A DNA stretch of 64,000 bases from Squalus acanthias. Its lineage: Eukaryota. The notes beneath the pieces are model-generated. The model was not told the DNA's origin. It was given only the letters and a program-made list of their open reading frames with translations, and did no database searches. The position numbers and the translations under genes are program-made. Numbering within the stretch: the stretch's first letter is position 1; the number at the start of each line of letters is the position of its first letter. The DNA is taken from contig CM059432.1 in NCBI GenBank assembly GCA_030390025.1, forward strand, positions 30,568,001 to 30,632,000, read 5' to 3'. Of this stretch, positions 1,402-59,715 are shown piece after piece.

Positions 1402-3062
1402 TGTAAGGGTTTGCGTGCGTGTCTCTCCGCCTGTGAGATTCGCGTGGCTCTGTGCAGCCTGTATGTCAGTGCGGGTTTAGGCCTTGTTGCCTGTTCTGGT
1501 CTCCAGCCAGTCTGGGAACACTAGACACACCTGTGAGTGGTTCGAATCACTCGCCCTTACGGTTCTAGACACTGGACTTAGATGCGAGAGCAGTAATGGA
1601 GATGAAACTCATGTAGACTCGGTTGAATGGTACGAAATGGAAAATCTTTATTGCATAATATTCAAGATTACGAAATACATGTCATAAGCACAGATTAATG
1701 ACAGTACAATCTTACACGCAGTTATGTAACTAATTCTAGGGAAACGAGGAACGAACGACACACCGTAAATGGGGGCACACATTACAATTATCCTTAGTAC
1801 TTAAACCCTCCCCTATCAATATCTGTCCTAGCTAGATTCGTAGGATTCGAGACTCATGCTCACCACTCGTGATAACTCGGAGAAATTCCGAATAGCTGAT
1901 CGGATGTTTTCACCGCAGCACCCACGTGTCGATCAGGGGGTCTCCTGGCCCCACTTGTTTACTTGCTTCTGCTCCGGCTAGCAGGCTGGAACGTCTGTTG
2001 TTATGAAGATCTGTGTTGGTTGGTTTCACGCACCAGTCAACACTTAAGAGAATAATCTCTCAGTGTCCGTCATGAGGATCAGTCAATATCTCAAAGAAGA
2101 ATCTTCCGGGGTCCGTTCTTTAAAGTTCAAAGAAGTCTTCCTGGCAAGGAGAAATGTCTATTCGACCTACAGGCGCGGTCGGGGCTTACTGACCGTGGCG
2201 ATAAGTATGGTCTTCGTCTCTTCTCATCTCATCTCATCTCTTCTCGGGCCTTTGGTTCCGATGCCGGTTACCAACACAGGTCTTCGTGACACGACACGAG
2301 GTAGATCCGAACGGATCACAAAGTTCAACAGTCTTTTAAAAGAGACACCAGGCAAACAGGAACAAGACGGCGAGTCAAGAACACAGGAGCAGCCATGAGG
2401 ATGAACACCAGCAAGATAAGAGGATAAGAGAAAGATGGACGGTTTGGGGCTTGCAATTATAGTGCAAAATCTTCCGTTTCCCGCCCAACCTTAATGTCTT
2501 TTCTTTTGTTTGGGTTTGGCGCTCACATGTCTTGTATAGGTGATCTCCGTTTTTAATGGGTTTCGGGGCTACTCGTAAATGTCTGAGTACCTGTTAATAT
2601 TTCTCCCATTGTTTAATCGGTCGGTGTTCTCCCTGGAGGGGTTTTGGGGCCTCCAAGTGTTTTCTGTAACTACCCGCTAACGGCTCTCTCATCGTAGAGT
2701 CGTTGGGATTCTACATATTAATGTCTTTGGATGGGCCCTTGATTACTTGGTACAATAGCCTTTATTCGTACCCGGGAGACCGATTTCAGTATCTATGTGT
2801 ATACTGCAAACCCATGATGTCTCGTGTATTATCTTCAATGTGCTGAATCTTAATCGATCTTGCACAAATGTTTATTGGAACGCCATCTTGTCTGCCTGTC
2901 GAAAAGTCCAGAATGTTCCGCCACGAGGTGCGGCGGCCATTTTACAAGCTGCCTGTGTCCACTTTGAAACCTGACAGCATTCTGCTGAAATAAAAGCTGT
3001 TTGAACGAAACTATGTGTTTTCTCCTTATTTAATAAAATCGCGATATATTGCGAATTCTACA
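1402..3062 (-). mobile_element. Long solo LTR (1661 bp), ERV/LTR-retroelement
   Basis: TGT...ACA termini and a perfect 4-bp TSD ACTG (1398-1401, 3063-3066). Minus-strand TATAA-like (~2456-2461) and AATAAA (~1647-1652) motifs. Shares motifs with the LTRs at 7645-11430. Confidence 0.85.
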
Positions 3063-3347: not shown

Positions 3348-4914
3348 TAGCAAAGCTTAATACTAAAGAACAGTAAAAGGCGATTACATTTGATTATATT
3401 TCAACAAATCAAAAGTTATCAGCGCATTCCTGCAGACAAATAATGCTGTAGACACTGTTTTTCCCTCTCTTCTAGCAATAACAATTAGTTTTTGCAATAA
3501 CAAGGACACATGTGATCGTACATCATCTGGGGAGTCCGAAAGCCATGGAGTGTGCAGAACAGCAGTTCTAACGAAAAGCTTAGGGTCATTTAACTCTAGC
3601 AATGCCTAATCCCTCTAAATATCCTCATAAGCCCATGGGGAGAAATTCAGTATCGCCCCGTTTGGGGTGCGATTATCGGCCGTGCGCAAGGTTTAGCGCC
3701 TGGCGCTAATTATCGCCTCCGACTGCAAACTTGGCTTTTATCGCCCCTGGAGGTGATTGGAGCGCTAAATCAGGCGCTGCACACCTGTCTTAAGGCGCAA
3801 AGGCCGAGGAGCGAGGCGCTAACTCAGAGCGCGAGTGCAGCGCAGGTGATGTCAGTTAGCGATGGAATGCAGAAAAACTGGCGCCGGACAGTTCTTAAAG
3901 GGGAGGCTCGATCTTGCTCTCCAGCCACACCCTGCTCATTGGAGCCTTGAATCTCGGCCTGGAAAGACCTGTGACTACATTTTCCAGCCAAGGACTATGG
4001 AGAGGGTGAGAGAACGAGCTCAGCGCTTCAGCGAGCGGGCCCTGGAGGCTCTGGTTGGCGCGGTGGAGCACAGAAGATCTATACTCTACCCTGAGAGTGG
4101 CAGGAGGTCTTTGCCACGCGGCTACAGAAGAGTGTGGAGGGAGGTGGCTCAGAGCATCTCCTCCAGGAGCATGGTGACCAGGACCCATATTCAATGTCGC
4201 AAAAGTTCAACGACCTCTTCTGCGCTCCACCGTGCCAACCAGAGCCTCCAAGGCCCGCTCGCTGAAGCGCTGAACTCGTTCTCTCACCCTCTCCATAGTC
4301 CTTGGCTGGAAAATGTAGTCACAGGTCTCTCCAGGTCGAGATCAAGGCTCCAATGAGCAGGGTGTGCCTGGAGAGCAAGATCGAGCCTCCCCTTTAAGAA
4401 CTGTCCGGCGCCAGTTTTTCTGCATTCCATCGCTAACTGACATCACCTGCGCTGCACTCGCGCTCTGAGTTAGCGCCTCGCTCCTCGGCCTTTGCGCCTT
4501 AAGACAGGTGTGCAGCGCCTGATTTCGTGCTCCAATCACCTCCAGGCGATAATTAGCGCCAGGCGCTAAACTTTGCGCACGGCCGATAATTGCGCCCCAA
4601 ACGGGGCGATACTGAATTTCTCCCCATGGGCTTATGAGGATATTTAGAGGGATTAGGCATTGCTAGAGTTAAATGACCCTAAGCTTTTCGTTAGAACTGC
4701 TGTTCTGCACACTCCATGGCTTTCGGACTCCCCAGATGATGTACGATCACATGTGTCCTTGTTATTGCAAAAACTAATTGTTATTGCTAGAAGAGAGGGA
4801 AAAACAGTGTCTACAGCATTATTTGTCTGCAGGAATGCGCTGATAACTTTTGATTTGTTGAAATATAATCAAATGTAATCGCCTTTTACTGTTCTTTAGT
4901 ATTAAGCTTTGCTA
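3348..4914. repeat. Large inverted repeat: arms 3348-4077 and 4216-4914, 138-bp spacer
   Basis: Direct reverse-complement match; the ORF track shows identical ORFs at 3384-3602(-) and 4660-4878(+). Confidence 0.97.
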
Positions 4915-6591
4915 AGGGTGACTGGCTTTTTTTCAATACCTCTCCATCCCTCCATCTCAACCTCACTCTGTGGCCAGGGGGTCTTAAAACCCCAATGCTC
5001 AACACTCATCCAACACCTATGGCCCTCTCATGAAACACACATGCACATTCCACACTTTGCATACATTAAGGGCTATTCAACTATGGGAGGCACATCAGGC
5101 AAGACCATGGCTGCATACATTAAGGGCTATTCAACTATGGGAGGCACATCAGGCAAGACCATGGCTGCATATATTAAGGGCTATTCAACTATGGGAGGCA
5201 CATCAGGCAAGACCATGGCTATATATTTACTCAGACGCCGTCCTTTTTCTTGCAGGCCAAGCTATCTCATAATAGGAGACAGCAGCAACGGATGGGTGGA
5301 GGGTGGCCTCAGCTGCAATCCCTCAGCGATCTTGAGGCGCGCGTCCACAGGATTGTGGCAAGCCAGGTGATCGGTCCCGTCGCCCCTGGAGAGGCCGACC
5401 CCGTTCTGGACAGCAATGGTAAGGTCATCACCTTTTTCTCCTCTCTCATTCCACTTGTCCCTCACAACACCAGCCTTTGACACTTTCAATCCAACTTACT
5501 AAATCGCTGCACTCCTTCCTCACTTACTGGCCCCCTTGTCTTCACGCTAAAGCCACTCTTGTACCTCCCTGCTTTCAGATGGTGATTCACCAGCTGAGGA
5601 GATGGGCCCTCAAGCTGCCAGTGGGAGTGAAGTTGCAGGCGAGGAGGAAGAGGAAGCCGGAGCATCAGCGCTACCCTCTCCCGAGGAAGCCCATGCCCAC
5701 ACTGGGAACACATCTTCCCTGGAGGGGAGCAGGGGGGAAGGGTCTGATGAGGGTGAAGCCCCAGTACCCAGCGGGCTGCAGCAACGCGATGGGGGTAGGG
5801 AAGCTCGGGAGCCTTCTCCCCGGAGGGAGAGTAGGCCAGCGAATCCTGCTGCACTGGACGTAGAGGAGGAGCGGCTCATCGCTGAAATGAACACCCAGGC
5901 GGTGGACATGCACATTCAGCTCATGGGTGCAGTGGGAAGGGTGCCCGAATGCATTGATGCACTGGCAAGGAGTGTGGAGCACTTCGCTGTAGCACAGGCG
6001 GATGCCACGCTAAAGCTTAGTGCTGCAATTCAGTCACTGGCTGCCGTGATCCCATCTCAGAATGCTCTCATGCAGACTCAGATTGAGGCCACGCAAGCAC
6101 TGACTGCTGCCATTGTTGCTGGATCGGACACATTTCCCCGGGGCTCTCACCGCGCCGCAGCAGGCCAGCAATCTGTGCTCCAGCAGATTGCTCCGGATGC
6201 TGATGTGCTGCCCCGTGGGAGTGCCAGTGTGTCGGTCGAGCAGGGAGTTGCTGTCCTCTCTCAAGATGACAGCATTCCTGCTGCCACCACTGTCACTTCC
6301 CCACTGCACTTACCACCGCCTGTAGCCCAGACTGCTGCCGCCCATGCAGAGTTGGTGCAGTCTGCAGCCGGGCCCTCCAGGCCCAGAGCTGGTCGAGGCC
6401 GTCCTTCAAGGGCATCTGCAGTCTCAGGTTCTGACAATCAGCAGCCTTCCACCAGCCTTGCTGCAGCCACTGGGGCCCCATTACGGAGGAGCAGTAGGGT
6501 GGGAAGGGGGGGAAGTGCGCAAGGGAAGGAGATCACCCTCGAAGGGCAAAAAGTAGGAGGTGTGACGAAATGTTGGTCAATTTTTTATTAA
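3997..6591 (+). pseudogene. Harbinger Myb/SANT-like DNA-binding protein gene, 3 exons (3997-~4218 plus remnant 4915-4917; 5256-5418; 5579-6591), disrupted
   Basis: Exon 1 encodes MERVRERAQRFSERALEALV...WREVA...QCRK(K)FNDL (Myb/SANT-like; 1-bp frameshift near 4203). Splice sites: AGG|gtgact at 4918, tgcag|GCC at 5256 (AKLSHNRRQQQRMGGG), G|gtaagg at 5419, and ttcag|AT at 5579, in frame with the 329-aa ORF. Exon 1 is interrupted by the inverted duplication. Confidence 0.85.
5058..5220. repeat. Tandem repeat, 3 x 54 bp, in intron 1 of the Myb-like gene
   Basis: Unit tgcatacattaagggctattcaactatgggaggcacatcaggcaagaccatggc starts at 5058, 5112 and 5166. Confidence 0.95.
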
Positions 6592-7644
6592 AGGCCGAGG
6601 TTCATGTTCAAACTTTTGTTTAGTGTTTTGGACATTATCTCCAGGTTGTGAGAACCAGTTATGTTAATGAATGATTTTTTGTGTTTGTTTCTATTAGTTT
6701 GTCATGAAAAAATGACACACACAGAGTTTGTAAAATAAATAAGTTTTTGTATTCAAAATGTACATGTTTGGTCTTTGGAATCATTGCTGCCTTGGCTGGC
6801 TTAGGGGTTGCGGGTTGGTTTCATTCATGTTGTCTCCATGGCAGAAGCCATTTCCTCAGTAGGGGCCTAGAAGCGGCTTGCTATCAGCCGTTGACGGACG
6901 GCCCTTGCAGTTTCAACATTGTGGGCCTCCCTCCCGTCTTGGTGCTGCTGATGATCATCCTCCTCCTCTTCCTCCTCCTCTTTCTCCTCCTCTTCCTCCT
7001 CCTCCTCCGGTGGTGCTCCAAGGCCTAGTGGCATTGGCTGGGTCCTGAGGGTTGCCAGGTTATGCAGCATGCAGCACACAACTATGAAGAGGGAGACTCA
7101 CTCAGGCGAATACTGCAGGGCTCCTCCTGAGTGGTCCAGACAGCGGTACCGTTGCTTGAGCACGCCGATCGTCTGCTCAACGATGTTCCTGGTGGCGAGA
7201 TGGCTGTCGTACCGCTGCTCAGCAGGGGTGTTGGGGTTACAGAATGGTGTCATCAGCCAGGTGCACAGTGGATAACCCTTGTCCCCGAGGAGCCAACCAC
7301 TTGGCTGATGCGGTGCCTGGAAAAATTCTGGCACAGTAGTCTGGCGCAGGATGAAAGCATCATGGCTGCTGCCAGGATAGTGGGCATTGACAGCAAGTAT
7401 CAGCTGTCTGTGGTCACAGACCAACGGGACGTTTAAGGAGTGGAACCCCTTGCGGTTTCGGAAAACCTCTGCACTCTCATGCAGTGCACGCAATGCCACA
7501 TGCGTGCAGTCAATGGCGCCCTGCACCATGGGGAAGCCCGCTTTCCTCGCAAAGCCCATTGCGCGTTCATGCTGTTTGGCCCAGGTCATCGGGAAAGAGA
7601 TGTACTGGCGTCTCCTTTTATAGAGGGCATTTGTGACCTGCCAG

Positions 7645-10023
7645 TGTAGGGGGTGGTGGTGTGTGTCAGCTTCACCTCTGACTTCTGAGCGGTTCGAATC
7701 GCTCCCACACCCTTGGTTCTAGACCTATTTGGGGGTTGTGACAAAAAGTGCAGCAGACAACTGGTTTTGATGCAAGAACTTTGATCTTTATTTAAGAAAG
7801 TAAAACACAACACAAACACTCTTAACACTCTAAAAATGGGGAACACTTCGGTACAAGCGAGGGAAATAACATTAGAAGAATACTTCACCCCTCCCAATCC
7901 CACTTCGCTAGCTAGGTTGGACTCCAGAGGACCAGGGATGATACTCACCAGAATCCTTGACAGTTAGGTTAGTTCGCGGTTTTGGGGTTCACTCTATATG
8001 TCGGTTTGTGTCTGCCGTAACCCGTACGCAGTAGAGGACTTCAACTGCGTATCTGGTCAGTCTTCGCGAGTCCGCTGATGCGATAGGGTGCGTATTGGAT
8101 TTATCAGGTGAGTACCCACTTTTCTTTAGTTTAGAAGTAGGGTTTAGAGTTTTTTAAGGGAAAATCTTACCCAGGGGTAAGTCAGGAGTAGATTGTAGAG
8201 TGGAAACTTTGCGGTTCTTTGGTTTTTCTTCGAGTTGGTTTTCTTTGGTCGCGGTGGCCCAAATATTGATACTTGGGGGTAGAAATTAGGTTGCGCCCCA
8301 TTTGGGGCGCAAATATCGTCCGGACGCAAATATTAGCGCCTGGCGCTAATTATCGGCACTGACAGGAAACTTCACTTTTACCGCCCCGGGAGGTGAGTGG
8401 AGCGCTAAAGCAGGCGCTGCACACCTCTCTTAAGGCGCAAAGGGCGAGCAGTGAGGTGCTAACTCGGAGCGCTGGCGAAGCTCATGTAATGTGAGTCAGC
8501 AATGGAACACACACACAATGGCACGGGCCAGTTCTTAAAGGGGATGGTTAATCTTGCTTTCCATCCACATCCTGTTCATTGCAGCCTTGAATCTCGGCCT
8601 GGAGAGACTTGCACATCAAATGTGCTGGAAAGTACAATGGAGAGTACCAGGCAAAGAGCTCAGAGTGCAGCTCCCACAGTCTCTGCTAAATCGATACAAG
8701 GAATGGCAAATCAAAATGAACCTGCAAAGTGCTGCTCAGTACCCAAAACTCCTTCACACAACGTTGAATCTCTCCAGAAGTCTCTCCCTCTCTCTCTCAG
8801 AATGCGTAGTTCAAAAATGCCACCAACAATAAAAGACAGGAAGAGGCCCCCTTTAAATAGCGCCCCCCCCAGCCCCACAGCGATTGATAGCGTTCCAGTC
8901 TTCTGGTCGTTGGAAGCGCCAGGCGGTAAGGCAGGGGGCGCCACTCAATTTCTGCTACGGGGCGCCACAAGGGCGTTGCACCATGGAATGACGTCACAAT
9001 CTGCGCGCGCAGGTGGTCGCAGCGGTAAGTTTTAGCGCCGCCGCACAATCTCAAGTTAAGTTCTCGAGCGGCGCAAACATCGCTGCGCCCGGGCGTTAGC
9101 GGCTTTGCGCCCCATTAGCGCCCTCTTAAGGCGCTAACGGGAGGCGCAACCAAGTGAATTTTTACCCCTTGGTGTTTGGTTGGTTGTTTCGTGAGGGCCT
9201 TATTGCCGCGAGGTGTCCGGTGGTCCCTGAGGCGGTCGTTCTGGTTTCTTCTCGTGTCAGCCTACTTTGTTGGATGGTCTGGCCTTCGAGCTGTCGACCC
9301 CCTGGCTGGACACGGAACGCTGAACGGTGTTGGTTTTAGAACTGTGTTGCGGAGAATGCCTCCGTCGATGTCTTCTTGTTCTTCCTTCCTCCTCTTCTTC
9401 TTCAGCTTGAGAACGGGCCTTCAATTATACCCATTGAAGGTTCCTTATCTGCGCGCCAAATCAGGTCTCGGTCTTTGTTAGTTTTGGCGGGCTCGTTAAC
9501 GGTAACTGGTTTGTTAAGGTGTGAAGTGGTTCCGGGATGGCCCCCATCCTGTCGATTTGCCACTTAATCGGAGTTTGATTGTTCTTATGTTTTGGGTTTT
9601 CTTGGCTGGGCCTATGATTTCTATAGAGTACGCCGAAGTAATCTGTTTTAATGCACGTCTTAATGGGCTCTGTTACTTGGGGTGGAGACTGTTTTTCCTC
9701 GGGTTTATTGTTAGGATGCTAATGTCTGATAGGGGCCGATTTACACTCCCAGCGAGATCATGCGGTTCCCCAGACAGTTCCCATTAGCTCCAATACCCAA
9801 ACTGTTTTTTACAGAGGTTGATCCCACCTTCCTTCACAGCCTTTTTCTCCCTTAAAAGCCCAGACATGTTTTAAAAGTACCAAATCTTGGTTTTTGCTCA
9901 AAAGGTTCTTCGGTTAGGCCCAATGCACGTCATCACCCTGTAATAGCTAGAAAAGAGTCCAAAGTCTCTTTCCTTAGGGTTTTCTTAGAGTTAGGGGGAT
10001 CTGTGAATTTTGAGAATCTTACA
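7645..10023 (-). mobile_element. Long LTR (complete, ~1.49 kb net of the MITE), first unit of a tandem LTR pair
   Basis: TGTAGG...CTTACA termini; colinear with 10024-11430; minus-strand TATAA (~9425) and AATAAA (~7787). Confidence 0.85.
8276..9168. mobile_element. Harbinger MITE / internal-deletion derivative inserted in the LTR
   Basis: TIRs GGGGTAGAAATT / AATTTTTACCCC and TSD TTG (8273-8275, 9169-9171). Both ends align with the ends of the 3637-12336 element; absent from the sister LTR. Confidence 0.92.
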
Positions 10024-11430
10024 GCTCCCACTCCCTTGGTTCTAGACCTTGGACTTATTTGGGGGTTGTGACAAAAAATGCAGCAGACAACTGGTTTTGG
10101 TGCAAGAAACTTTGATCTTTATTCAAGAGACAAAATATAACACAACAATCTTAACACTCTAATAAAATGGGGAACACTTCGATACACACGAGGGAAATTA
10201 CAGCAGAAAAATACCTCACCCCTCTCAATCCCACTTTACTAGCTAAGTTAGGCTTTAGAGGACCAGGGATAATGCTCACCAAACGAATCCTTGACAGTTG
10301 AGCTGGTTCGCGGTTTCGGGGTTCGCTGGGTGTGTTGGTTGGTGCCTGCCGTACCCCGGACGCGGTAGAGGACTTCGACTGCGTGTCTGGTCAGTCTTCG
10401 CGAGTCCGCTGATGCGGTAGGGTGCGTATTGGATTTATCGGGTGAGTACCCATTTTTCTTCTGTTAGAGATAGGGTTTAGAGTCTTTTTAAGTAAAAATC
10501 TTACCCAGGGGTAAGTCAGGAATAGATTGCAGAGTGGAAAACTTGCGAAATCTTCGGTTTTCTCCCGAGCTGGTTTTCTTTGGTCGCAGTGACCCAATAT
10601 TACCCTGTTGGCTGGTGGTAATATTCGGTTGGTTGTTTCGTAAGGCCCTTGTTGCCGTGAGGTGTCTGATGGTCACTGGAACTGTTGCTCTGGTCTCTTC
10701 TTGTGTGTTGACCTGCTTCTAGAACTGTGAACTTCTTTGAACTCGATGAACTCCTGAGAACTGCCGAGAACTGTAGAGCTTGTAGAGAACTTGTTGTAAC
10801 TGTGTAACTGCTGAACTGTCTTCTTGAGAAAACAGGCCCTCAATTATACTAATTGGGGCCTCCTAATCTGCGCGCCAAATCAGTCCCGGTTTATTGTAAG
10901 ATTTTGGCGGGCTCGTTAATAGTAACTTGTTTATTATTGTGTGAAGTGGTTTCGGGAGGGTTCCATGAGCTGTTGAGCTCTTACTTGATTGTAGTCATTG
11001 TGCTCAGGTTTCGAGTTTCCTGACTGGGCCTGAGATTTCTATGGAGTGGGGCGAGGTGATTTGTTTTATGCAGGTTTTGGATGGGTCCTGTAATTTGGGT
11101 GGGGACTGCTCTTCCGTGGGTCTATTGTTAGAATGTAAATTGTCTGATAGAGGCTGAGTGACGTTAAACAGTTCCCCAGACAGTTTGATTAACTCCAATA
11201 CTCAAACCGTCTATTACAGAGGTTGAACCCATCTCCTGTTGCAGCCTTTTCCTTTACAAGCTCAAACATGCCTTTTTAAAATACCAAATCTTGGTTTTTG
11301 ACCTAGAATCTCCCTCTGTTAGGCCCAATACATTTTATCACCCTGAAGTGGTTAGAAAAGAGTCCAAAGTCCTTTTCTTTAGGGCTTTTCTCCGAGTTTT
11401 GGGGGATCTGTGAATTTTGAGAATCTTACA
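10024..11430 (-). mobile_element. Long LTR lacking ~56 terminal bp, second unit of the tandem pair
   Basis: Ends gaattttgagaatcttaca like the first unit and starts at gctccca (= 7701 of the first unit). The pair is flanked by CCAG (7641-7644) and CCGG (11431-11434). Confidence 0.85.
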
Positions 11431-12624
11431 CCGGATACAGCAATGGACCGTGAACTGGGAGATATTGGCGATGTCCCCAGTAGCTGCTTGAAAGGAGCTG
11501 GTGGCATAAAAGTTTAGAGCCACTGTGACCTTCACTGCCACCGACAGAGACGTCCTGGTCCTCAGTAGAAGCTGCAGATCTGGCTGCAGCAGGTGGCAGA
11601 GCTCAGTGACCACCTCCTTGCTGAAGCGCAGCCTGCGCAAACACTGCTCCTCAGACAAATTAATGTAGGAGAATTGTTCCCGGAATACCCTCGGAGGGTA
11701 AGGTCTCCTGTACAGAGGCCTGTTGGCCCTCCTCCATCTGGCCATGATTGCCATTCTCTCTCTGCGTCTATGTTGCCTCCGATTCTGCAGGCGCAGGACG
11801 ACGCCCCGAATCAGTGCAGCCCCCTAAGTATCTTGTTAATCAAAGTAATGAAGGCCAAATCCAAAAGTACCTGCAAAGTGATGCTCAGTAGCCAAAACTA
11901 CTTCACACAGCATAGACTCTGTGCAGAAGTCTCTCCTTCTCTCTCTCAGAATCTCTCTCTCTGTCAGAATGAGTGGTGCAAAAATGTCTACCACAGAAAA
12001 AGCCAGGAAGAGGTCGCCTTTAAATAGCGCCCCCCCAGCTCCACACCGACTGGGAAACATTCCAGTCTACCTGTCGTTGCTTGCACCAGGCGGAAAGGAG
12101 GGGGGCGCCACTCAATATCCGGTCCGGGGCACCACAAGAGCGTTGCACGCTCGACTGACATGAAGATCTGCGGGCGCAGGAGATCGGGGCGGTATTGTTT
12201 AGCGCCGCCGCAAAATGTCTGGTCAATTTCACGAGCGGCGCAGGCATCGCCGCGCCCGGGCGCTAGTTGCTTTGCACCCCATTAGCGCCCTCTTAAGGCG
12301 CTAACGGGAGGCGCAAATCAACCGAATTTTTCCCCCCATATGTTTACAGCCCTCGGGCCTCATCAGCATACTCAGCAAGAGCTGCCGGTGCTAGTCATGC
12401 CTGCACAGGCAGCTTGCCCGAGCAAAGACTTTAATGTTGGGCCACCTGCTTCGCCAGCAGTGGATCTCAGGTAGGACCCGGGAGTGGAGTGCGCTATGGG
12501 GGTGAGGCTGATTGCGACTCCTGTGGAGTCGGTAGAGCTCTCCTGTTGCACAATTTGGGTTGAAAATATATTTAAACGGACATGTTTTTAGCGGCTTGTT
12601 ACCTGTTGCTTACCTGTTAGCTGT

Positions 12625-26594: not shown

Positions 26595-28368
26595 GGCAGG
26601 AATTCTACCGGAGCTCAGCAGACGCGATGGGTGGCGGGTCAGCTGTTCAATTTTAAATGATTGACAGCGGGCTGGAAACCTGCTGTCAAAACGTGCACAC
26701 TGGACTTTCCCGATGTCGGGTCAAGCAGACCCGACAGGCAGCGGCGGGCAAGGCATTTAAAATCATTAGTGGCTTGTTTACAGCCACTTAACAATGCTTT
26801 TTTCCCAGCATTTTGAATTCGACAGGTTGCCCACTGGTTTCCCGCAGTGTCTAGACCTCGTCTGTGAAGCTGAGGTGGGAGGCGACTTGCCATTGTTTCA
26901 GCTGATGAGTTGACAGCTTCAAATGTCAAGTCAAAGCTCCCAGCTGATTGAGATATGTTCCCTTAGACACTAGCTTCTCTAAACTGCATTTCCACTACAG
27001 ATTCAGAATGCTGCAAGTCTTTACACAAGTCTCCATCCAGTCTGACCTCATTACCTTGCCCACCATTGACAGATCACTTCTGTCATCTCTACTTCACCTG
27101 TCATCTATTCCATCAGCATCGGTGCACTTTATACTCTCTTACCTTGGTCCTCAAATCCCACCACGATCAGCCCCAACACCAGCACCACCAGGCACACCAG
27201 CAGCACCAACAACAACACCAACCTTCTCCACAATCAACTGATGCTGCACAGGACACAGGGCATCAGCACCCGATCACATTGCTGCCCGGAGGCCAGGGAT
27301 GGCCTCACCATAGCCAGATTTACTTCACTTGAAGCTGTACACCCTGGCTGCCACATGATGCGCCAGGTTGGCACCACCCCACACCAACACCATAAAGCAT
27401 CCCTACAATGCCCAAGCCATTACTTTCACACTTATCACCATTGCTGGGGGTGGGGGGGGGGGGGATGGTACCCTTATGTCTCACCATTCTCTGCAACTCA
27501 CGAAGCCACTTCCAAAGGTGCACACAAATCTGTCCAAGAACACAAAGTGTTGACAATAAAGATTTCAATGTTTGACAGCACATTAACAGAAACTTCACAT
27601 GAACATTGGCTAAAACTTACAAATGCCTACCCTTGTGTGTTGTTATTTGGTATGATTGGACTAGGATGAGTGTGAGTGTGAGGGGTGGCTAGTGAGATGG
27701 GAAAGTGATAATGTAGATAGAGAGGGATGGGTGGAGGTGCAAGGTAAGTTGGTGTGTGTAAGGATGTGCAGGAGTAGGGTAGGGAAGGCAGAGTGATGGG
27801 GATGTGATGAGAGGCACAGCAGGATGAGGTTGAGTGTGGCTTTGCAGTAATGTTTTGTGAACTACTGAGATCATTGAAAGGTTTGCGCCACTGCAGCCAG
27901 GTCCTCCTGAAGACATCTCTGCTTGTGTCCTGTGCAATATGCAACCAGGCTGCGTTAGTCTCCTGGGAAGGTCCCTTCCGCCAGTTGGAAAGGAAGAGAA
28001 CCTCCCTGAGTGCTGTGACTCCCTCCATAAGCATATGGAGGGAGTAATGAGAGAGCCTGGGTGCAGCCCCGCACCTCTGTGCAGTTCTTGTCAGTGTTTG
28101 CAGCACCTCTATGCTGTAGAACACTAACAGCACAAATGTCAAAGTAAATTTGCGCATGGTCCCTTTAAGGAAACCGGCTGATGACGCATCAGCAAATGAC
28201 GTCATCAGACCCGCTTCCTTCCTTTGGCCGGGAAACGCGCTGGGCGGGCTTAACATGCCCAATCAGGGGAATGTCATTTCAGAGGCTGGGATGGAGACAG
28301 GAGCAGGGCCGGGACCTGCCACCGTCGTCGCCCGCCACGGACCCGCTGAGGTAGGGAAAATCACAGCC
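26595..28368 (-). mobile_element. Non-autonomous Harbinger with decayed Myb/SANT exon
   Basis: Imperfect TIRs GGCAGGAATT / AATCACAGCC and TSD AAG (26592-26594, 28369-28371). Minus strand encodes APRLSHYSL...AAWLHIA...RTWLQWRKPFNDL. Confidence 0.8.
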
Positions 28369-31300: not shown

Positions 31301-31375
31301 GATGTCGTGGCAATAAATGAGACCTGGCTCAAAAAAGGGCAGGAATGGGTACTAAATATTTCTGCAGAAATATTT

Positions 31376-33251
31376 CCTGTGTGAGAACCTCTCTGGGTAC
31401 GTCGAGGGCATCCTGAAACCCATCGTACAGGGAACCCCCAGCTTCTGTCGCGACACTACAGACTTCTTGCAGAAACTCAGCACACATGGACCAGTTGAAA
31501 CAGGAACACTCCTCGCCACGATGGACGTATTGGCACTCTACACCAATATCCCCCACGATGACGGCATCGCTGCGACAGCCTCAGTACTCAACACCAACAA
31601 CAGCCAATCTCCAGACGCCATCCTACAACTCATCCGCTTCATCCTTGACCACAATGTCTTCACCTTCGACAACCAGTTTTTTACCCAAACACACGGAACA
31701 GCCATGGGGACCAAATTCGCACCCCAATACGCCAACATCTTCATGCACAAGTTCGAGCAAGACTTCTTCGCTACACAGGACCTCCAACCAACGCTGTACA
31801 CCAGATACATTGACGACATCTTCTTCCTTTGGACCCACGGCGAAGGATCACTGAAAGGATGACACGATAACATCAACAGGTTCCATCCCACCATCAAACT
31901 CACCATGGACTGCTCCTCAGAATCAGTTTCATTCTTGGACACACGAATCTCCATCAAAGACGGACACCTCAGCACTTCACTCTACCGCAAGCTCACGGAG
32001 AACCTCACGATGCTCCACTTCTCCAGCTTCCACCCTAACCACGTTAAAGAAGCCATCCCCTATGGACAAGCCCTGCGAATACACAGGATCTGCTCAGACG
32101 AGGAGGAACACGATGGACACCTACGGACGCTGAAAGACGCCCTCGTAAGAACGGGATATGACACTCGACTCGTCGATCGACAGTTCCGACGGGCCACAGC
32201 AAAAAACCGCATAGACCTCCTCAGAAGGCGAACACGGGACACAACCAACAGAGTACCCTACGTCGTCCAGTACTTCCCCGGAGCGGAGAAACTACACCAT
32301 GTTCTTCGCAGCCTTCAACATGTCATCGATGACGACGAACACCTTGCTAAGGCCATCCCCACGCCTCCACTACTCGCCTTCAAGCAGCCGCCTAACCTCA
32401 AAAGTACCATCGTTCGCAGCAAATTACCCAGCTTTCAGGAGAACAGCGACCACGACACCACACAACCCTGCCACGGCAACCTCTGCAAGACATGCCAGAT
32501 CATCAACACAGATACCATCATCACACGTGAGGACACTACCCACCAGGTACATGGTACATACTCATGTGACTCGGCCAACGTTGTCTACCTCATACGTTGC
32601 AGGAAAGAATGCACCGCGGCATGGTACATTGGCGAGACCATGCAGACACTGAGACAACGTATGAACGGACACTGCGCAACAATCACCAGGCAGGATTGTT
32701 ACCTCCCAGTCGGGGAACACTTCAGCAGTCAAGAACATTCAGCCTCGGATCTGCGGGTTAGCGTTCTCCAAGGCGGCCTTCGAGACACACGACAACGCAA
32801 AATCATCGAGCAGAAACTGATAGCCAAGTTCCGCACCCATGAGGACGGCCTCAATAGGGATCTCGGGTTCATGTCACGCTACAGAACGTGACTCGACATC
32901 GTTGTCTGTCTTTCCAGTTTAAAAAAAAAATCACAACAAAAAAAAAAGTTAAAAGCTTAACTGCAGACGGCAGCATTTGACACGTTGGACCCCCTGTGAC
33001 CCACCTCATTGCCTTAGCTGTACTCTGATGGGTCTTTGATGTAATGCCTCCCTAACAGATTGTATCTCTGCAGACAAATTGTTCTCTGTGTATATATACT
33101 GTGTAATAGATTCACTCACTGTACCTTTACCTGAAGAAGGGGCAGAGCTCCGAAAGCTCGTAATTTTAAATAAAACTGTTGGACTATAACCTGGTGTTGT
33201 GCGACTTCTCATTTTTGTCCACTCCAGTCCAACACCGGCATCTCCGCATCA
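31376..33251 (+). mobile_element. Penelope-like element, 5'-truncated (RT + GIY-YIG endonuclease + pLTR)
   Basis: GTAMGTKFAP and RYIDD; VVYLIRC...WYIGET...RMNGH; one frameshift near 31858. The CR1 sequence resumes at 33252. Confidence 0.92.
33125..33165 (+). ncRNA. Hammerhead ribozyme motif in Penelope pLTR
   Basis: CTGAAGA (33131-33137), stem II ggggc/gctcc, GAAA (33152-33155). Confidence 0.7.
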
Positions 33252-38059: not shown

Positions 38060-38310
38060 CTTTTACTGCCACTTCAATTCAGTGCCTCTGGTGGAGGTGG
38101 GCTCTAGGCCTGGGTCCAATAGGTGCCACAACGCACCAGCAACCTCCTGAAGGAAGTGTAGTCTTCTCACTCATTGTTCATTGGTGAGATCCAGCGAGGA
38201 GCACCTTGAGTACCTGGGCTTGGGCACCAGATGCCTCCTATGGTGCTTGACACGTTTTGTGGCCCTCAGAGGTTCCATAACCTCCATCTCCTTCCTCATC
38301 ATAAGTGCAG
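38060..38310 (-). pseudogene. Ancient Harbinger transposase N-terminal remnant
   Basis: SSLDLTNEQ*VRRLHF resembles SYINLSEEQCLRRLRF of the 11431-11754 segment. Confidence 0.5.
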
Positions 38311-38651: not shown

Positions 38652-39393
38652 GGGGGAAAAATTAGGTCGCGCCCCGTTTGGGGCGCAAATATCGTCTGGA
38701 CGCAAATATTAGCGCCTGGCGCTAATTATCGCCACTGACTGGAAACTTCACTTTTACCGCCCCGGGAGGTGAGTGGAGCGCTAAATCAGGATCTGCACAC
38801 CTGTCTTAAGGCGCAAAGGCCGAGCAGTGAGGCGCTAACTCAGCACGCGAGCGCAGCGCAGGTGCTGCCAGTTAGCGAGGGAACACAGACACACTGGCGC
38901 CGGCCAGTTCTTAAAGCGGGGGGGGGCCCAACTGTTAGGATCAGTAGGCAAAACTACCTCACAAAGCGTTGACTCAATGCAGAAGTCTCTCTTTCTCTCT
39001 CTCCGAATCTCTCTCTCTCTCTCAGAACGAGTGGTGCAAAAATGTCAACCACAGAAAAAGACAGGAAGAGGCCCCCTTTAAATAGCGCCCCCCCCAGCCC
39101 CACAGCGATTGATAGCATTCCAGTCTTCCAGTCGTTGGATGCGCCAGGCGGTAAGGCAGGGGGCGCCACTCAATTTCCGCTCCGGGGCGCCACAAGGGCG
39201 TTGCACCATGGAATGACGTCACAATCTGCGCGCGCAGGTGGTCGCAGTGGTAAGGTTTAGCGCCGCTGCACAATGTCTAGTTAAGTTCCCGAGCGGCGCA
39301 AACATCGCTGCGCCCGGGCGTTAGCGGCTTTGCGCCCCATTAGCGCCCTCTTAAGGCGCTAACGGGAGGCGCAACCAACTGAATTTTTACCCC
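38652..39393. mobile_element. Harbinger MITE (same family as 3637-12336 and 8276-9168)
   Basis: TIRs GGGGGAAAAATT / AATTTTTACCCC and TSD ATG (38649-38651, 39394-39396). Confidence 0.92.
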
Positions 39394-50326: not shown

Positions 50327-53300
50327 TGTGGTAACACTTTTCAGCTTCCTGTATGACATCACTTCCTGTAATCAGTCCAGGATAAATACTGGACTGATCA
50401 GTTAGCTCTGGAAGAGGCATAGGGTAAGATCTCTTTTGTATGCAGCACCGTTTTAAGTTGATTAAAGCTTACATTAAGTTTACCACGCGTAAGGCTCATT
50501 CTTACGACAATTTAATCAACTTTGGAAAAACTTCGCACTCAAACTTTTTGGACGAACTCGGAGTTAAGGATCCAGGGAATCACCCATCATGGAAAACATC
50601 CTTAAACCATCGCGTCTTGACTTGGACCCAAACACCCCAGCAGCCGGTAAGGTGTGGAAACACTGGTATCGCACGTTTGAGAATTTTCTTGAGTATTGCA
50701 AAGCTGATGATAACTCAAAGTTGCGGATACTCATCAACTGTGTCACCCCGAATGTATTTCAGTATGTGGAAGACTGGGACAGTTATGAGGAGGCAATTCA
50801 GACGCTTAAGAGACTATATACTAAGACACCGAATGAGGTCTATGCTAGACATCTACTAGCTACAGCCCAACAAGGGCCGGAGGAATCCATTGATAAATTC
50901 CTCCAAGAGCTTCGCAGACTTAGTATGGACTGTAACTTTCGGGCAGCCTCAGCTGAGCTATACCGCGAAGAAATGATCCGTGATGCGTTCATCTGCGGGC
51001 TTGCCTCCCCATTTATACGCCAGCGTCTACTGGAAAGTAAGACACTTGAGCTGCAGAGAGCTTATGACCTGGCTTGCTCTCTAGATCTGGCAAAAAGAAA
51101 TGCAGACCTTTTTACAGTGCCCAGACCTCGGTCTGCTGCCTTAACTACAGTCAGGCAATTTAAGAGGCCACAGGTGAACTCTATTAGGGAGGACTTTATC
51201 CCTGACGATCGATCTGATGACTTCACTGATGAAGAGGATGATGACCCCACTGTGGCAGCCTCTTGGCAATCTAAGAAATGCTTTTTTTGTGGTGATGAGT
51301 TTCACCCTCGGAGATTCTGCCCTGCTCGCAATGCGTTTTGCAGTCATTGCAACAAAAAGGGTCATTTTGTAAAGGTTTGCCTATCAAGAGCCTCTACGAG
51401 GGCTTATCAAGCTAAGTCCTACCGAACTGCCCCAGTAAGGGCCTATCAGGATGTTCCAACTAAAAACTATCATGCTTCCTCTCGGGTTTTTTCTCGAAGA
51501 AACACACCTAGAATTTCAGCCACTCTTTGTGCAACGACACCAATTACAGCTGCTTGTCCTCAGAACCTATTCCATGCAGCTACAAAAGCATCAATTAATG
51601 GACATACTTTAGATGCCTTAATTGACTCAGGTAGCACTGATAGTTTCATTAGGGAACAGACTGTTGCACAGTTAAAGCTACATGTTTTTCCATCGGACCA
51701 GGCAGTTGCGATGGCTCAGTCATCACTTAATACCAGAATTTCTGGCTTCTGTGTAGTTGAAATAATGCTTAAAGGTCACAGGTATCCCTCCACCCGGCTT
51801 TCGGTGCTCAAGGACTTATGTAGTGATCTTATCTTAGGGCTGGATTTTCAAAAGCAGCATAAGAAGCTTACCATTGAGTTCGGCGGATCCAAACCTGAAC
51901 TCACTATTTCTAATATACGACCTCGATTACCGTTCTGTGCCTTGTCAGCAGCTTCACTGGATGAACCCTCACTGTTTGCCAGTATCCCTCCTCGATGCAA
52001 ACCGATTATAACAAAGTCACGCCGTTTCAGTCAGGAAGACCAGTCTTTTATTGCGGCTGAGATTTCTCGGCTTTTAGCAGAGGATATCATCGAGCCTTGT
52101 TCGTCGCCATGGCGCGCCCAGGTCGTTATTGTTAAGAACCCTCTACAACCTCACAAGAAACGGCTGTGCATTGACTATTCACAGACCATCAATCAGTATA
52201 CGGACTTGGACGCATACCCATTGCCGCGCATCGATGATATGGTTAATAAATTGGCTGAGTACACGGTGTTCTCGACTTATGATCTGAAAAGCGCCTATCA
52301 TCAGGTACCCTTGAAGGTCTCAGACAAGCAGTATACAGCCTTTGAAGCCAATGGGCGGCTGTATCAATTTCGTCGCCTCCCCTTTGGGGTCACTAATGGA
52401 GTGGCTGTCTTCCAGCGAGCAATGGATGACCTGGTCAAACAGGAAGACTTGAAGGATACGTTTCCTTATCTGGACAATATTACTGTCGCAGGTCGCAATC
52501 AGCAGGAACATGACGCCAATCTCCAACGATTTTGGGATGCACTCCAGCACCGTAATTTGACATTGAATGCGGCTAAATCCATTGAGTCACAACCAACTAT
52601 CAACATCCTTGGCTATTGTGTGGGCAATGGCATCATTAAACCTGACCCTGAAAGGCTTCGCCCACTCCAAGAACTCCCGCCACCTAAGAATCCGGCCTCC
52701 TTGCGCCGGGCCCTCGGCCTGTTTGCATACTATGCGAAATGGATTCCTAACTTCTCGGACCGAATCCAACCTCTACTGAAGGCCAGCATATTCCCACTAG
52801 ACACAACGGCTGTTGCAGCCTTTAACCTCCTGAAAAAGCAGTTGGAGAAAGCGGCTCTTCACTCCATCGATGAGAGTCTTCCTTTCGTGGTTGAGTGTGA
52901 TGCCTCGGAGGTGGCAATCTCAGCCACTCTGAATCAGGAAGGTCGTCCGGTGGCATTTTTGTCCAGGACTTTTCAAGGGGCTGAGCTACATTATCCTCCA
53001 GTCGAGAAAGAAGCTACAGCCATCATAGAGGCAGTACGGAAGTGGAGTCATCTCCTGGCTCGCCAGCACTTTACCTTAATCACGGACCAGCGATCGGTCG
53101 CCTTCATGCTCGATAATCGAAAACGGACCAAAATTAAAAATAATAAAATCCAGCTTTGGCGGCTGGAATTGGCCTCTTTTGGTTACACCATCCACTATCG
53201 ACCTGGCAAGGAGAATGTGGCTCCGGATACCCTCACACGAGCATTCTGCTCCGCCATGGCACCCTCTACGCTCGTAGACATCCATGATGGGTTGTGTCAT

Positions 53301-54746
53301 CCAGGCGTTACTCGCATGCTGCACTTCGTGCGGTCCCGAAATCTCCCATTCTCTACCGGGGATGTAAAGAAGATGTGCTCGGACTGCAGAGTCTGTGTGG
53401 AATTGAAACCTCGGTTTTTCCGCCCCTCGGGTGGTATACTCATACATGCGACCCAGCCAATGCAAAGGCTTAGCATCGATTTTAAGGGGCCGTTGCCCTC
53501 TTCGACTCGCAACACTTATCTATTAACAATGGTTGATGAGTATTCTCGTTTTCCGTTTGCCTTTCCCTGCCCCAATATGCTGACAACCACGGTTATCAGC
53601 TGCCTTGAACAGGTATTTGCTTTCTGTGGCATGGCATCCTATGTTCATTCAGATCGGGGCCCTTCTTTTATGTCGGGAGAACTCAAGGCCTATCTCTCGG
53701 AACGGGGTATTGCTGCCAGCAAAACGACGCCTTATCATCCGGTTGGGAATGGGCAAGTCGAGCGTTTTAACGCTATCATCTGGAATGCGGTACGTCTGGC
53801 TTTGAGATCTCGGGGCCTACCCAACCAGCATTGGGAAGCAGTACTTCCAGACGCATTACACTCCACACGGTCCCTCCTTTCGACCGCCACAAATACGACG
53901 CCTCATGAACGGTTCTTCCGATTTCAGCGTCGCTCATCCTATGGGACATCTCTCCCGTCGTGGCTGACTGCACCGGGACCAGTGCTACTCCGAAGATATG
54001 TCCGGGCGTCTAAGAATGACCCCCTGGTAGATGAGGTTGAGCTCACTGACGTCAACCCTACCTACGCCTATATTCGGTATCCTGACGGTCGGGAATCTAC
54101 CGTGTCATTGCGGGATCTGGCTCCCTGCCCGCCGAAACATAGAGGGACACCAGGGGATGATATTGTACCAGGCACATCTCTGGGCTTGCCAGGTGCCTCT
54201 CATCATGATCGGGATCTGACGCCGGCTGGTACCTCACTCCAGCGTGCCGACCTGGGGCAGACTGACTATGAGCCCGTCGGGGCTCGCACGCGCAGCCACG
54301 ATCAACCCTGTACCGTACGCTCAGAAACGGATCTGCCACAGCCCTGCCCGACACCCATTCGGGTACCAGTACACAGTCAGGATCGTTCTGACCCCTCACA
54401 GAGCGGGCTGGAGCACTCGGACTCTGGTCCATGGCCCGCAGCGGGTAAACGGGCTAGGGGCCCTCTACCGCTACGAGAACCCAAACGGGTGCGGCTCTCC
54501 CTCATCCAACGGCTACGAAATGGAGGGAGCATCCCGGCCTCCTAATCTTTTGGGGGGGGAGAATGTGGTAACACTTTTCAGCTTCCTGTATGACATCACT
54601 TCCTGTAATCAGTCCAGGATAAATACTGGACTGATCAGTTAGCTCTGGAAGAGGCATAGGGTAAGATCTCTTTTGTATGCAGCACCGTTTTAAGTTGATT
54701 AAAGCTTACATTAAGTTTACCACGCGTAAGGCTCATTCTTACGACA
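50327..54746 (+). mobile_element. Intact Ty3/Gypsy LTR retrotransposon (Mag-like Gag)
   Basis: Identical 183-bp LTRs (50327-50509, 54564-54746, TG...CA), 5-bp TSD GTCAC, and a purine-rich PPT (G-run + agaa) at 54552-54563. Confidence 0.98.
50589..54545 (+). CDS. Gag-Pol polyprotein (Gag with two zinc knuckles, aspartic protease, RT, RNase H, integrase), 1318 aa
   Basis: CFFC..H..C/CSHC..GH..C knuckles; LIDSGS protease; RLCIDY, DLKSAYHQ, LPFG and YLDN in RT; CDAS...EKE...TD RNase H; HHCC plus D-D-E (IDFKG, SDRG, VERFN) integrase. Confidence 0.97.
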   Translation: MENILKPSRLDLDPNTPAAGKVWKHWYRTFENFLEYCKADDNSKLRILINCVTPNVFQYVEDWDSYEEAIQTLKRLYTKTPNEVYARHLLATAQQGPEESIDKFLQELRRLSMDCNFRAASAELYREEMIRDAFICGLASPFIRQRLLESKTLELQRAYDLACSLDLAKRNADLFTVPRPRSAALTTVRQFKRPQVNSIREDFIPDDRSDDFTDEEDDDPTVAASWQSKKCFFCGDEFHPRRFCPARNAFCSHCNKKGHFVKVCLSRASTRAYQAKSYRTAPVRAYQDVPTKNYHASSRVFSRRNTPRISATLCATTPITAACPQNLFHAATKASINGHTLDALIDSGSTDSFIREQTVAQLKLHVFPSDQAVAMAQSSLNTRISGFCVVEIMLKGHRYPSTRLSVLKDLCSDLILGLDFQKQHKKLTIEFGGSKPELTISNIRPRLPFCALSAASLDEPSLFASIPPRCKPIITKSRRFSQEDQSFIAAEISRLLAEDIIEPCSSPWRAQVVIVKNPLQPHKKRLCIDYSQTINQYTDLDAYPLPRIDDMVNKLAEYTVFSTYDLKSAYHQVPLKVSDKQYTAFEANGRLYQFRRLPFGVTNGVAVFQRAMDDLVKQEDLKDTFPYLDNITVAGRNQQEHDANLQRFWDALQHRNLTLNAAKSIESQPTINILGYCVGNGIIKPDPERLRPLQELPPPKNPASLRRALGLFAYYAKWIPNFSDRIQPLLKASIFPLDTTAVAAFNLLKKQLEKAALHSIDESLPFVVECDASEVAISATLNQEGRPVAFLSRTFQGAELHYPPVEKEATAIIEAVRKWSHLLARQHFTLITDQRSVAFMLDNRKRTKIKNNKIQLWRLELASFGYTIHYRPGKENVAPDTLTRAFCSAMAPSTLVDIHDGLCHPGVTRMLHFVRSRNLPFSTGDVKKMCSDCRVCVELKPRFFRPSGGILIHATQPMQRLSIDFKGPLPSSTRNTYLLTMVDEYSRFPFAFPCPNMLTTTVISCLEQVFAFCGMASYVHSDRGPSFMSGELKAYLSERGIAASKTTPYHPVGNGQVERFNAIIWNAVRLALRSRGLPNQHWEAVLPDALHSTRSLLSTATNTTPHERFFRFQRRSSYGTSLPSWLTAPGPVLLRRYVRASKNDPLVDEVELTDVNPTYAYIRYPDGRESTVSLRDLAPCPPKHRGTPGDDIVPGTSLGLPGASHHDRDLTPAGTSLQRADLGQTDYEPVGARTRSHDQPCTVRSETDLPQPCPTPIRVPVHSQDRSDPSQSGLEHSDSGPWPAAGKRARGPLPLREPKRVRLSLIQRLRNGGSIPAS

Positions 54747-58955: not shown

Positions 58956-59715
58956 GAGGGCGAAATTGGGTGCCTTTGCGCCTCCCGTTAGCGCCCCCGG
59001 GGGACGCTAACAGGGCGCAAATGGATTTGCGATCAGGCGCGGCGCTGACAGCGACTCCCGCCATATTCGGCGGGAGTTTTGTGGCGGTGCTAGGCTGTTG
59101 CGCCCCGCTCTCCTTCACCCGGAGATCGTGACATCATCACTGTGCGCATCGCCCCGGTAGCACCCCCGACCCGAAATTGACTTCCGCCCCCTGCAGCAGC
59201 GCCGGTCGAAAACACCGACAGCTGCAGGAGGCGTGCATCAGGCGGCCGGCCACTTCGGGGGCGAGGATTAAAGGCGAGGTGGCCGAGGTAAGTAAAAAAA
59301 ACCCTTACCTTTCTTGTGCCAGTTTTATCACGGGTTCCTGCCCGCAATCGATCAGCCCGGCACTCAGCTTGAGTGCCGGGCTGATCGCACGGGATTGCAG
59401 CTACCCTGGGGGTCCAGGTAAGCACTTTTTAAATTGCAGAGCCTGCAGAGATGGCCCTTCCCTTTAAGGGAGGGAAGGAGCCTTTGAACGTGGCTGCGCT
59501 GCTCGGCCCAGTGTGCAGCGCTGCTGAAGTCTCCGCCTCGCCTGCTGCCGATTGCGCTCCAAGAAGGAAGTGGAGCGCTTGATTTAGTGTTCCACTTCCT
59601 TCTTGGAGCGCAAAACCGAATTTTTCAGAAGTTTGAAATTGTTAGTGCCTGGTGCTAACTTTTCAAACTTTTAAAAATTAACGCCCCAAACAGGGTGATA
59701 GTGAATTTCTCCCCC
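58956..59715. mobile_element. Harbinger MITE, related subfamily, opposite orientation
   Basis: Ends GAGGGCGAAATT / GAATTTCTCCCCC; subterminal gcgcctcccgttagcgcc shared with the family; flanks CTC/CTA. Confidence 0.75.

Follow-up and report, generated by a model that had tools for sequence, protein, structure and literature searches.

A local inverted duplication inside a dead Harbinger transposon, a probable scar of fold-back break repair

In a stretch of 64,000 nucleotides of Squalus acanthias DNA, called the window below, the left end of a Harbinger transposon is followed by an inverted copy of itself. We interpret this structure as an inverted duplication that arose locally in a Harbinger, now dead, probably when a DNA break was repaired by folding back, and that probably has no selected role in silencing. 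We assign this reading a probability of roughly 0.8. The geometry, the letters at the junctions, the loss of 12 nt, the local origin of the copy, the independent decay of the arms and the breakage of both transposon genes are read directly from the data, and they are the basis on which we infer the repair pathway.

The left arm, which is the original, lies on the plus strand at positions 3348-4077. It consists of 289 bp of host flank, the left terminal inverted repeat (TIR) starting at 3637, the subterminal region and the first 81 nt of the Myb coding sequence, whose ATG is at 3997. The right arm, an inverted copy on the minus strand, occupies 4216-4914. Between the arms is a spacer of 138 bp (4078-4215, plus strand), which is the remainder of Myb exon 1 and carries a 1-bp deletion near 4201-4204. 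An earlier sequence-only reading had proposed exactly these arms, this spacer and this arm content, and the alignment confirms them. The left arm matches the reverse complement of the right arm in 687 of 699 aligned columns, with 12 substitutions (BLAST E-value 0.0). In addition, the right arm has a 1-bp deletion and a 30-bp deletion, the latter between short direct repeats and corresponding to 3716-3745 of the left arm. Host flank (3348-3636, with 0 differences from its inverted copy at 4626-4914) makes up 41% of the arm (289 of 699 columns). Transposase sequence is absent from the arms, and the 81 nt are their only Myb coding sequence. The predicted RNA fold of 3348-4814, which covers most of the inverted repeat under a limit of 1500 nt, is a single long stem of -1319 kcal/mol. 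The observed/expected CpG ratio is 0.86 for the arm and 0.48 for the window, and the CpG-rich arm may contain an active promoter.

The duplication is located in a full-length but non-functional Harbinger at 3637-12336 on the plus strand. The element is flanked by the 3-bp target duplication CAT (3634-3636 and 12337-12339), as is usual for PIF/Harbinger, and is bounded by short imperfect TIRs, in which about 12 of 14 letters match if one extra G is allowed in the terminal run. PF13359 and PF13873 both score above the Pfam cut-off, which identifies a DDE transposase together with a Myb/SANT gene. Myb exon 1 (3997-4217; PF13873, E 9.9e-07) is frameshifted and interrupted by the duplication, and its final codon is found with an altered splice donor, GTGACT, at 4915-4923; family contigs have GTGAGT. 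A protein search with exon 1 gave 0 of 283 candidates at E 1e-5. A predicted exon 2 at 5256-5418, with AG before and GT after, was placed from splice signals and reading frame, and a predicted exon 3 at 5580-6591 is an open frame with no Pfam match. All Myb exons are on the plus strand.

The transposase is encoded on the minus strand, convergent to the Myb gene. Its C-terminal part is at 6867-7640 (PF13359, E 1.2e-28) and is interrupted in frame by a TGA at 7100-7098; its N-terminal part is at 11431-11757. The two are split by an LTR-like TG...CA insertion at 7645-11430, which has the target duplication CCAG/CCGG. HARBI1-type homologues are found for this transposase, and the best matches are shark and ray proteins with at most 71% identity (340 candidates). 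None of the 340 candidates is a full-length transposase closer than 71%, an absence that is weak evidence on the existence of active copies. Both genes are broken, the Myb gene by the frameshift, the 12-nt loss and the altered donor, the transposase by the TGA and the 3.8-kb insertion. The element is a Harbinger by target duplication, TIRs and gene content, but it is not autonomous.

Several repeats are observed within and around the element. The insertion at 7645-11430 consists of two direct units that are 76-85% alike, with a Harbinger MITE (8276-9168) nested in the first. Myb intron 1 contains a 54-bp unit repeated three times (5058-5220, 99% alike). Upstream, an LTR-like TG...CA element at 1402-3062, with a 4-bp ACTG duplication and its sole TATAA on the minus strand, ends 285 bp before the left arm. 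Farther away, decayed Harbinger-like sequences are found as a Myb-like frame that carries a motif similar to FNDL (27630-28262, minus strand), a transposase fragment (38075-38266, minus strand) and a diverged MITE-like element (58963-59714). The reverse transcriptase and GIY-YIG-like frames at 31356-32888 are Penelope-like by eye. A Gypsy-like LTR retrotransposon, so labelled from reading its translation, lies at 50327-54746. Its 183-bp LTRs are 100% identical, its open frame runs for 1325 codons and its duplication is GTCAC, 5 bp long, which marks it as a very young insertion.

Two non-autonomous Harbinger elements are found on the plus strand of the window, at 8276-9168 with the target duplication TTG and at 38652-39393 with ATG. 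Both had been named as family members whose shared sequence a hairpin RNA from the arms would target. The first MITE is 81% alike to the arm and the second 85%. Of about 400 words of the arm at each length, the MITEs share 3-17 at 21 nt and 0-11 at 24 nt; so few shared words rule them out as main targets. The family in the contigs of public sequencing runs is closer to the arm than either MITE. Its abundance was judged by contigs that run from the TIR end into unlike flanks, not by summed contig depths. There are 253 such contigs in run X1, 306 in X2 and 573 in X9, three runs of DNA type, with an agreement of about 0.4. With hundreds of insertion flanks, the locus described here is therefore a small part of a large family. 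According to PMC9179366, Harbingers were not found in elephant shark and a check of other cartilaginous fish is called for; the abundance of the family in the runs examined bears on this call. The target duplications at 3634, 8273 and 38649 are CAT, TTG and ATG (CAW on one strand), not TAA/TTA.

Comparison of the arms with the family majority reveals where the copy came from. Among the rows listed, we hand-picked 12 at which the right arm differs from the majority. Nine of these differences are common to both arms, six of them at positions where the majority reaches at least 94%, and the remaining three occur in the right arm only. Because six letters unlike the family majority are found in both arms, the copy was made locally. 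Since the duplication each arm has acquired about five private changes, a count of tentative polarity that excludes sites 4060 and 4070. The polarity was taken from family-majority rows, counts of change types and the two MITEs, and it is weak near the ends of the alignment. The left arm shows an apparent A-to-G excess. An origin of the arms from two different family members was also considered and is ruled out by the shared private letters.

The differences between the arms are not evenly distributed. The inner 379 columns contain all 12 substitutions and the two deletions and differ at about 3%. The outer 320 bp (289 bp of flank and 31 bp of TIR; 3348-3667 versus 4595-4914) contain 0 differences. 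This clustering, a pattern noticed post hoc, has a P of 0.002 without weighting; once CpG and GC are given weights, P becomes 0.012-0.028. A single event followed by uniform decay does not explain the identical outer 320 bp. A recent conversion from arm to arm, perhaps after a cut at one of the two left TIRs, or a collapse of the consensus could have produced it. Such a conversion would be centred on the boundary between TIR and flank.

Both junctions of the copy can be read. At the inner junction, 2 bp (4216-4217) are common to the exon end and the template (4076-4077), and a longer imperfect match was not found there (3 of 12 letters). The outer junction, 4914/4915, is blunt with no microhomology. 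Family contigs carry 12 extra nt, four codons reading TRVV, between the FNDL motif and the exon-final R before 4915 (20 contigs in X1, 19 in X2 and 3 in X17). The copy has therefore replaced 12 nt. Both of its boundaries are unrelated to the transposon end, and no target duplication surrounds it. The sequence-only reading had placed the copy at the end of Myb exon 1, after FNDL and directly before AGG/GTGACT. The position and the adjoining AGG/GTGACT stand. The insertion is not clean, given the 12 lost nt and the family donor GTGAGT, and the loss of one A near 4201-4204, which family contigs retain, puts FNDL out of frame with the ATG.

These junctions have the form expected of a fold-back insertion. 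Microhomology is found at the priming junction next to an inverted template, even though 2 bp can be chance, and the second junction is of the end-joining type, blunt at 4914/4915 and with 12 nt missing relative to family contigs. In the hybrid model presented in PMC11724301, the two ends behave differently: a microhomology serves one as its priming site, and end joining captures the other. Applied to our locus, a DNA break would have fallen where Myb exon 1 ends, leaving a free 3' end (4217) that would fold back over a loop of 138 nt and prime on the 2-bp match at 4076-4077. Synthesis would proceed backward for about 730 nt through the subterminal region and the left TIR into the host flank. 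Finally, the new strand would come free and be attached to the other end (4915) by a blunt join, at the cost of 12 nt. The yeast fold-back products reported in PMC11724301 measure from 2 to about 150 bp. Because 700 bp is far above this range and priming on 2 bp is weak, a template switch during replication fits equally well, and it would give an identical scar.

The position of the duplication at a transposon end raises the question of whether the transposase was involved. Alternative transposition or abortive gap repair might have made the duplication, or a cut at one of the two left TIRs might later have led to homogenisation of its outer part. The identical tract 3348-3667 spans the TIR/flank boundary, the expected site of such a cut, and alternative transposition of maize Ac is described to yield inverted duplications (bioRxiv 10.1101/2020.01.07.897926). 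However, the Ac composite insertions of that report have borders at the transposon terminus together with target duplications, and neither is found here. The junctions are inside exon 1 and the host flank, with no duplication. An origin as an Ac-type composite insertion is argued against, because the junctions are not at termini and a target duplication is missing. Furthermore, the CAT duplication of the element is intact and no excision footprint is seen. We consider a transposase-driven origin improbable. The two left TIRs face each other around a 989-bp unit (3637-4625), which is in principle a transposase substrate. This unit has not moved here, because its flanks are CAT and ATG, which are inverted and form no direct duplication.

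The structure could also be an artefact of assembly, in whole or in part, for example through a chimeric inner junction that combines a normal and an inverted haplotype or through collapse of the flank consensus. Among the 20 public sequencing runs listed, four (X1, X2, X9 and X17) were aligned to 4078-5057. A contig of X2, which may be the sample that the window derives from, bridges the outer junction 4914/4915. It covers 4798-4953 with one mismatch and one gap, and has 117 and 39 letters on the two sides. No piece that bridges the inner junction is among the 32 contig pieces listed for the four runs, beside which 35,447 more exist. Thus, of the two junctions that the sequence-only reading had proposed, the outer one is bridged in X2 and the inner one lacks a bridging piece among those 32. 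A contig of X1, a run read to about 55%, covers 4793-4914 and continues with 13 unlike letters, presumably the left flank. Neither the X2 nor the X1 contig breaks at 4914, where two arms predict a fork. This may reflect carriers and non-carriers, cleaning of the contig graph or a partial artefact. In X9 (organism D), no contig lies over 4840 and no junction piece is among the 8 listed, a coverage gap that is uninformative. X17 is one of five runs guessed to be RNA, all with small shares of 0.09-0.18. Its contigs leave 4705-4869 uncovered, and the 8 pieces listed for it differ from the window at 4-10 letters per 80-125, which speaks neither for nor against transcription.

The unbridged inner junction, the unforked contigs and the zero differences between the flank arms are what an artefact might leave. 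Against it stand the outer junction present in short-read contigs of X2, and the balanced private changes of the arms together with the 30-bp deletion between short direct repeats, which are unlike a read chimera. The missing fork can be explained by graph cleaning or by X1 being a non-carrier read only to 55%. An artefact seems to us quite improbable.

The sequence-only reading had compared the locus to maize Mu killer and proposed that its transcription would yield long dsRNA against the family. Small RNAs from such a hairpin would then silence related elements in trans, as was proposed for Mu killer. The structural likeness stands, namely the inverted duplication of one end and the facing TIRs, with two subterminal copies facing each other like the two TIRA copies of Mu killer (PMC3440606). 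The single long predicted stem of 3348-4814, the CpG-rich arm and the small divergence of the arms from the family majority, only a few percent, are compatible with such a function, and in mouse oocytes a transcribed LTR inverted repeat is reported to give RNAs of 21-23 nt (PMC6944382). The silencing function itself is unsupported, with no transposase in the arms, a stem whose perfect pairing is in the flank and a dead host element. Myb coding sequence in the arms amounts to just 81 nt, host flank takes up 289 of 699 columns, and the perfectly paired part of the stem is this non-transposon flank and not the part that would target the family. All 12 substitutions are in the transposon part and 0 in the flank, the reverse of what selection on a targeting stem would leave. 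From the TATA-like word at 3894, with an inferred and unmapped start, the stem would be only about 150 bp long and contain mismatches.

The genomic context also argues against a killer. The dead host element is one among at least hundreds of related insertions, whereas Mu killer came to light in lines with a single copy (PMC3440606). Dicer of jawed vertebrates is reported to handle long dsRNA poorly. A Dicer loop that inhibits RNAi is reported in a preprint to be conserved from sharks to mammals (bioRxiv 10.64898/2026.02.19.706781), and mouse somatic cells are described to dice long dsRNA poorly (PMC6391682). The TATAA of the upstream LTR-like element, a weak point, is directed away from the arms, and other nearby inverted repeat pairs are present in the window, as results from ordinary repeat density. 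The sequence-only reading had relied on a model of Mu killer in which read-through from the flank gives the hairpin, and PMC3440606 disputes this model. Searches of open-licence literature listed no vertebrate killer locus for a DNA transposon. A Harbinger killer is thus very unlikely, and we hold it to be equally remote that germ-line transcription from the two facing Myb-side promoter regions gave small RNAs that silenced a Harbinger subfamily in trans.

We regard the duplication as real, and most likely as an ordinary scar of fold-back repair, left in a transposon that is both dead and abundant. Seen in this way, it is a long insertion of the fold-back type whose junctions can be read cleanly, and its interest is modest. 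Were it shown to silence the family, it would demonstrate that one hairpin can start silencing in a lineage whose Dicer is regarded as inefficient in RNAi. A killer allele could possibly be polymorphic, with the outer junction in X2 and none in the listed X1 pieces; carriers and non-carriers would then be directly comparable.

Among known systems, the host element resembles vertebrate PIF/Harbinger as described in PMC9179366 by its TIRs, its 3-bp target duplication and its combination of a DDE transposase with a Myb-like gene. The TIRs given there are usually 25-50 bp, whereas here a match of about 14 bp is found and both genes are broken. Maize Ac killers and composite insertions (bioRxiv 10.1101/2020.01.07.897926) are alike in that a transposon end forms an inverted repeat that can include host sequence. 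They differ in that the composite insertions are terminus-bounded with 8-bp target duplications, neither seen in our locus, and that siRNAs were shown for them.

Maize Mu killer, as presented in PMC3440606, likewise arose naturally when one end of a DNA transposon with two genes was duplicated in inverted orientation, and it carries the same TIR twice. Its arms contain about 1.3 kb of the transposase gene, and it was found by dominant silencing of an active element (PMC3440606, citing Slotkin et al. 2005). In contrast, the arms described here contain flanking host DNA and the beginning of Myb, the partner gene, and the rest of the element is still attached. Like killer loci, our locus arose when part of a DNA transposon was naturally duplicated in inverted orientation. 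Its arms hold no 5' part of the transposase gene, which lies at 6867-11757. On this single point of structural likeness it should not be filed as a killer locus.

The yeast fold-back insertions of PMC11724301 are 2 to about 150 bp long and use a 10-bp imperfect repeat, whereas the copy here is about 700 bp with a 2-bp microhomology and its pathway is deduced from sequence alone. The likeness concerns the construction itself. In both, the template is local and next to the break, a loop separates the arms, the priming junction shows microhomology, and the second junction is of the end-joining type.
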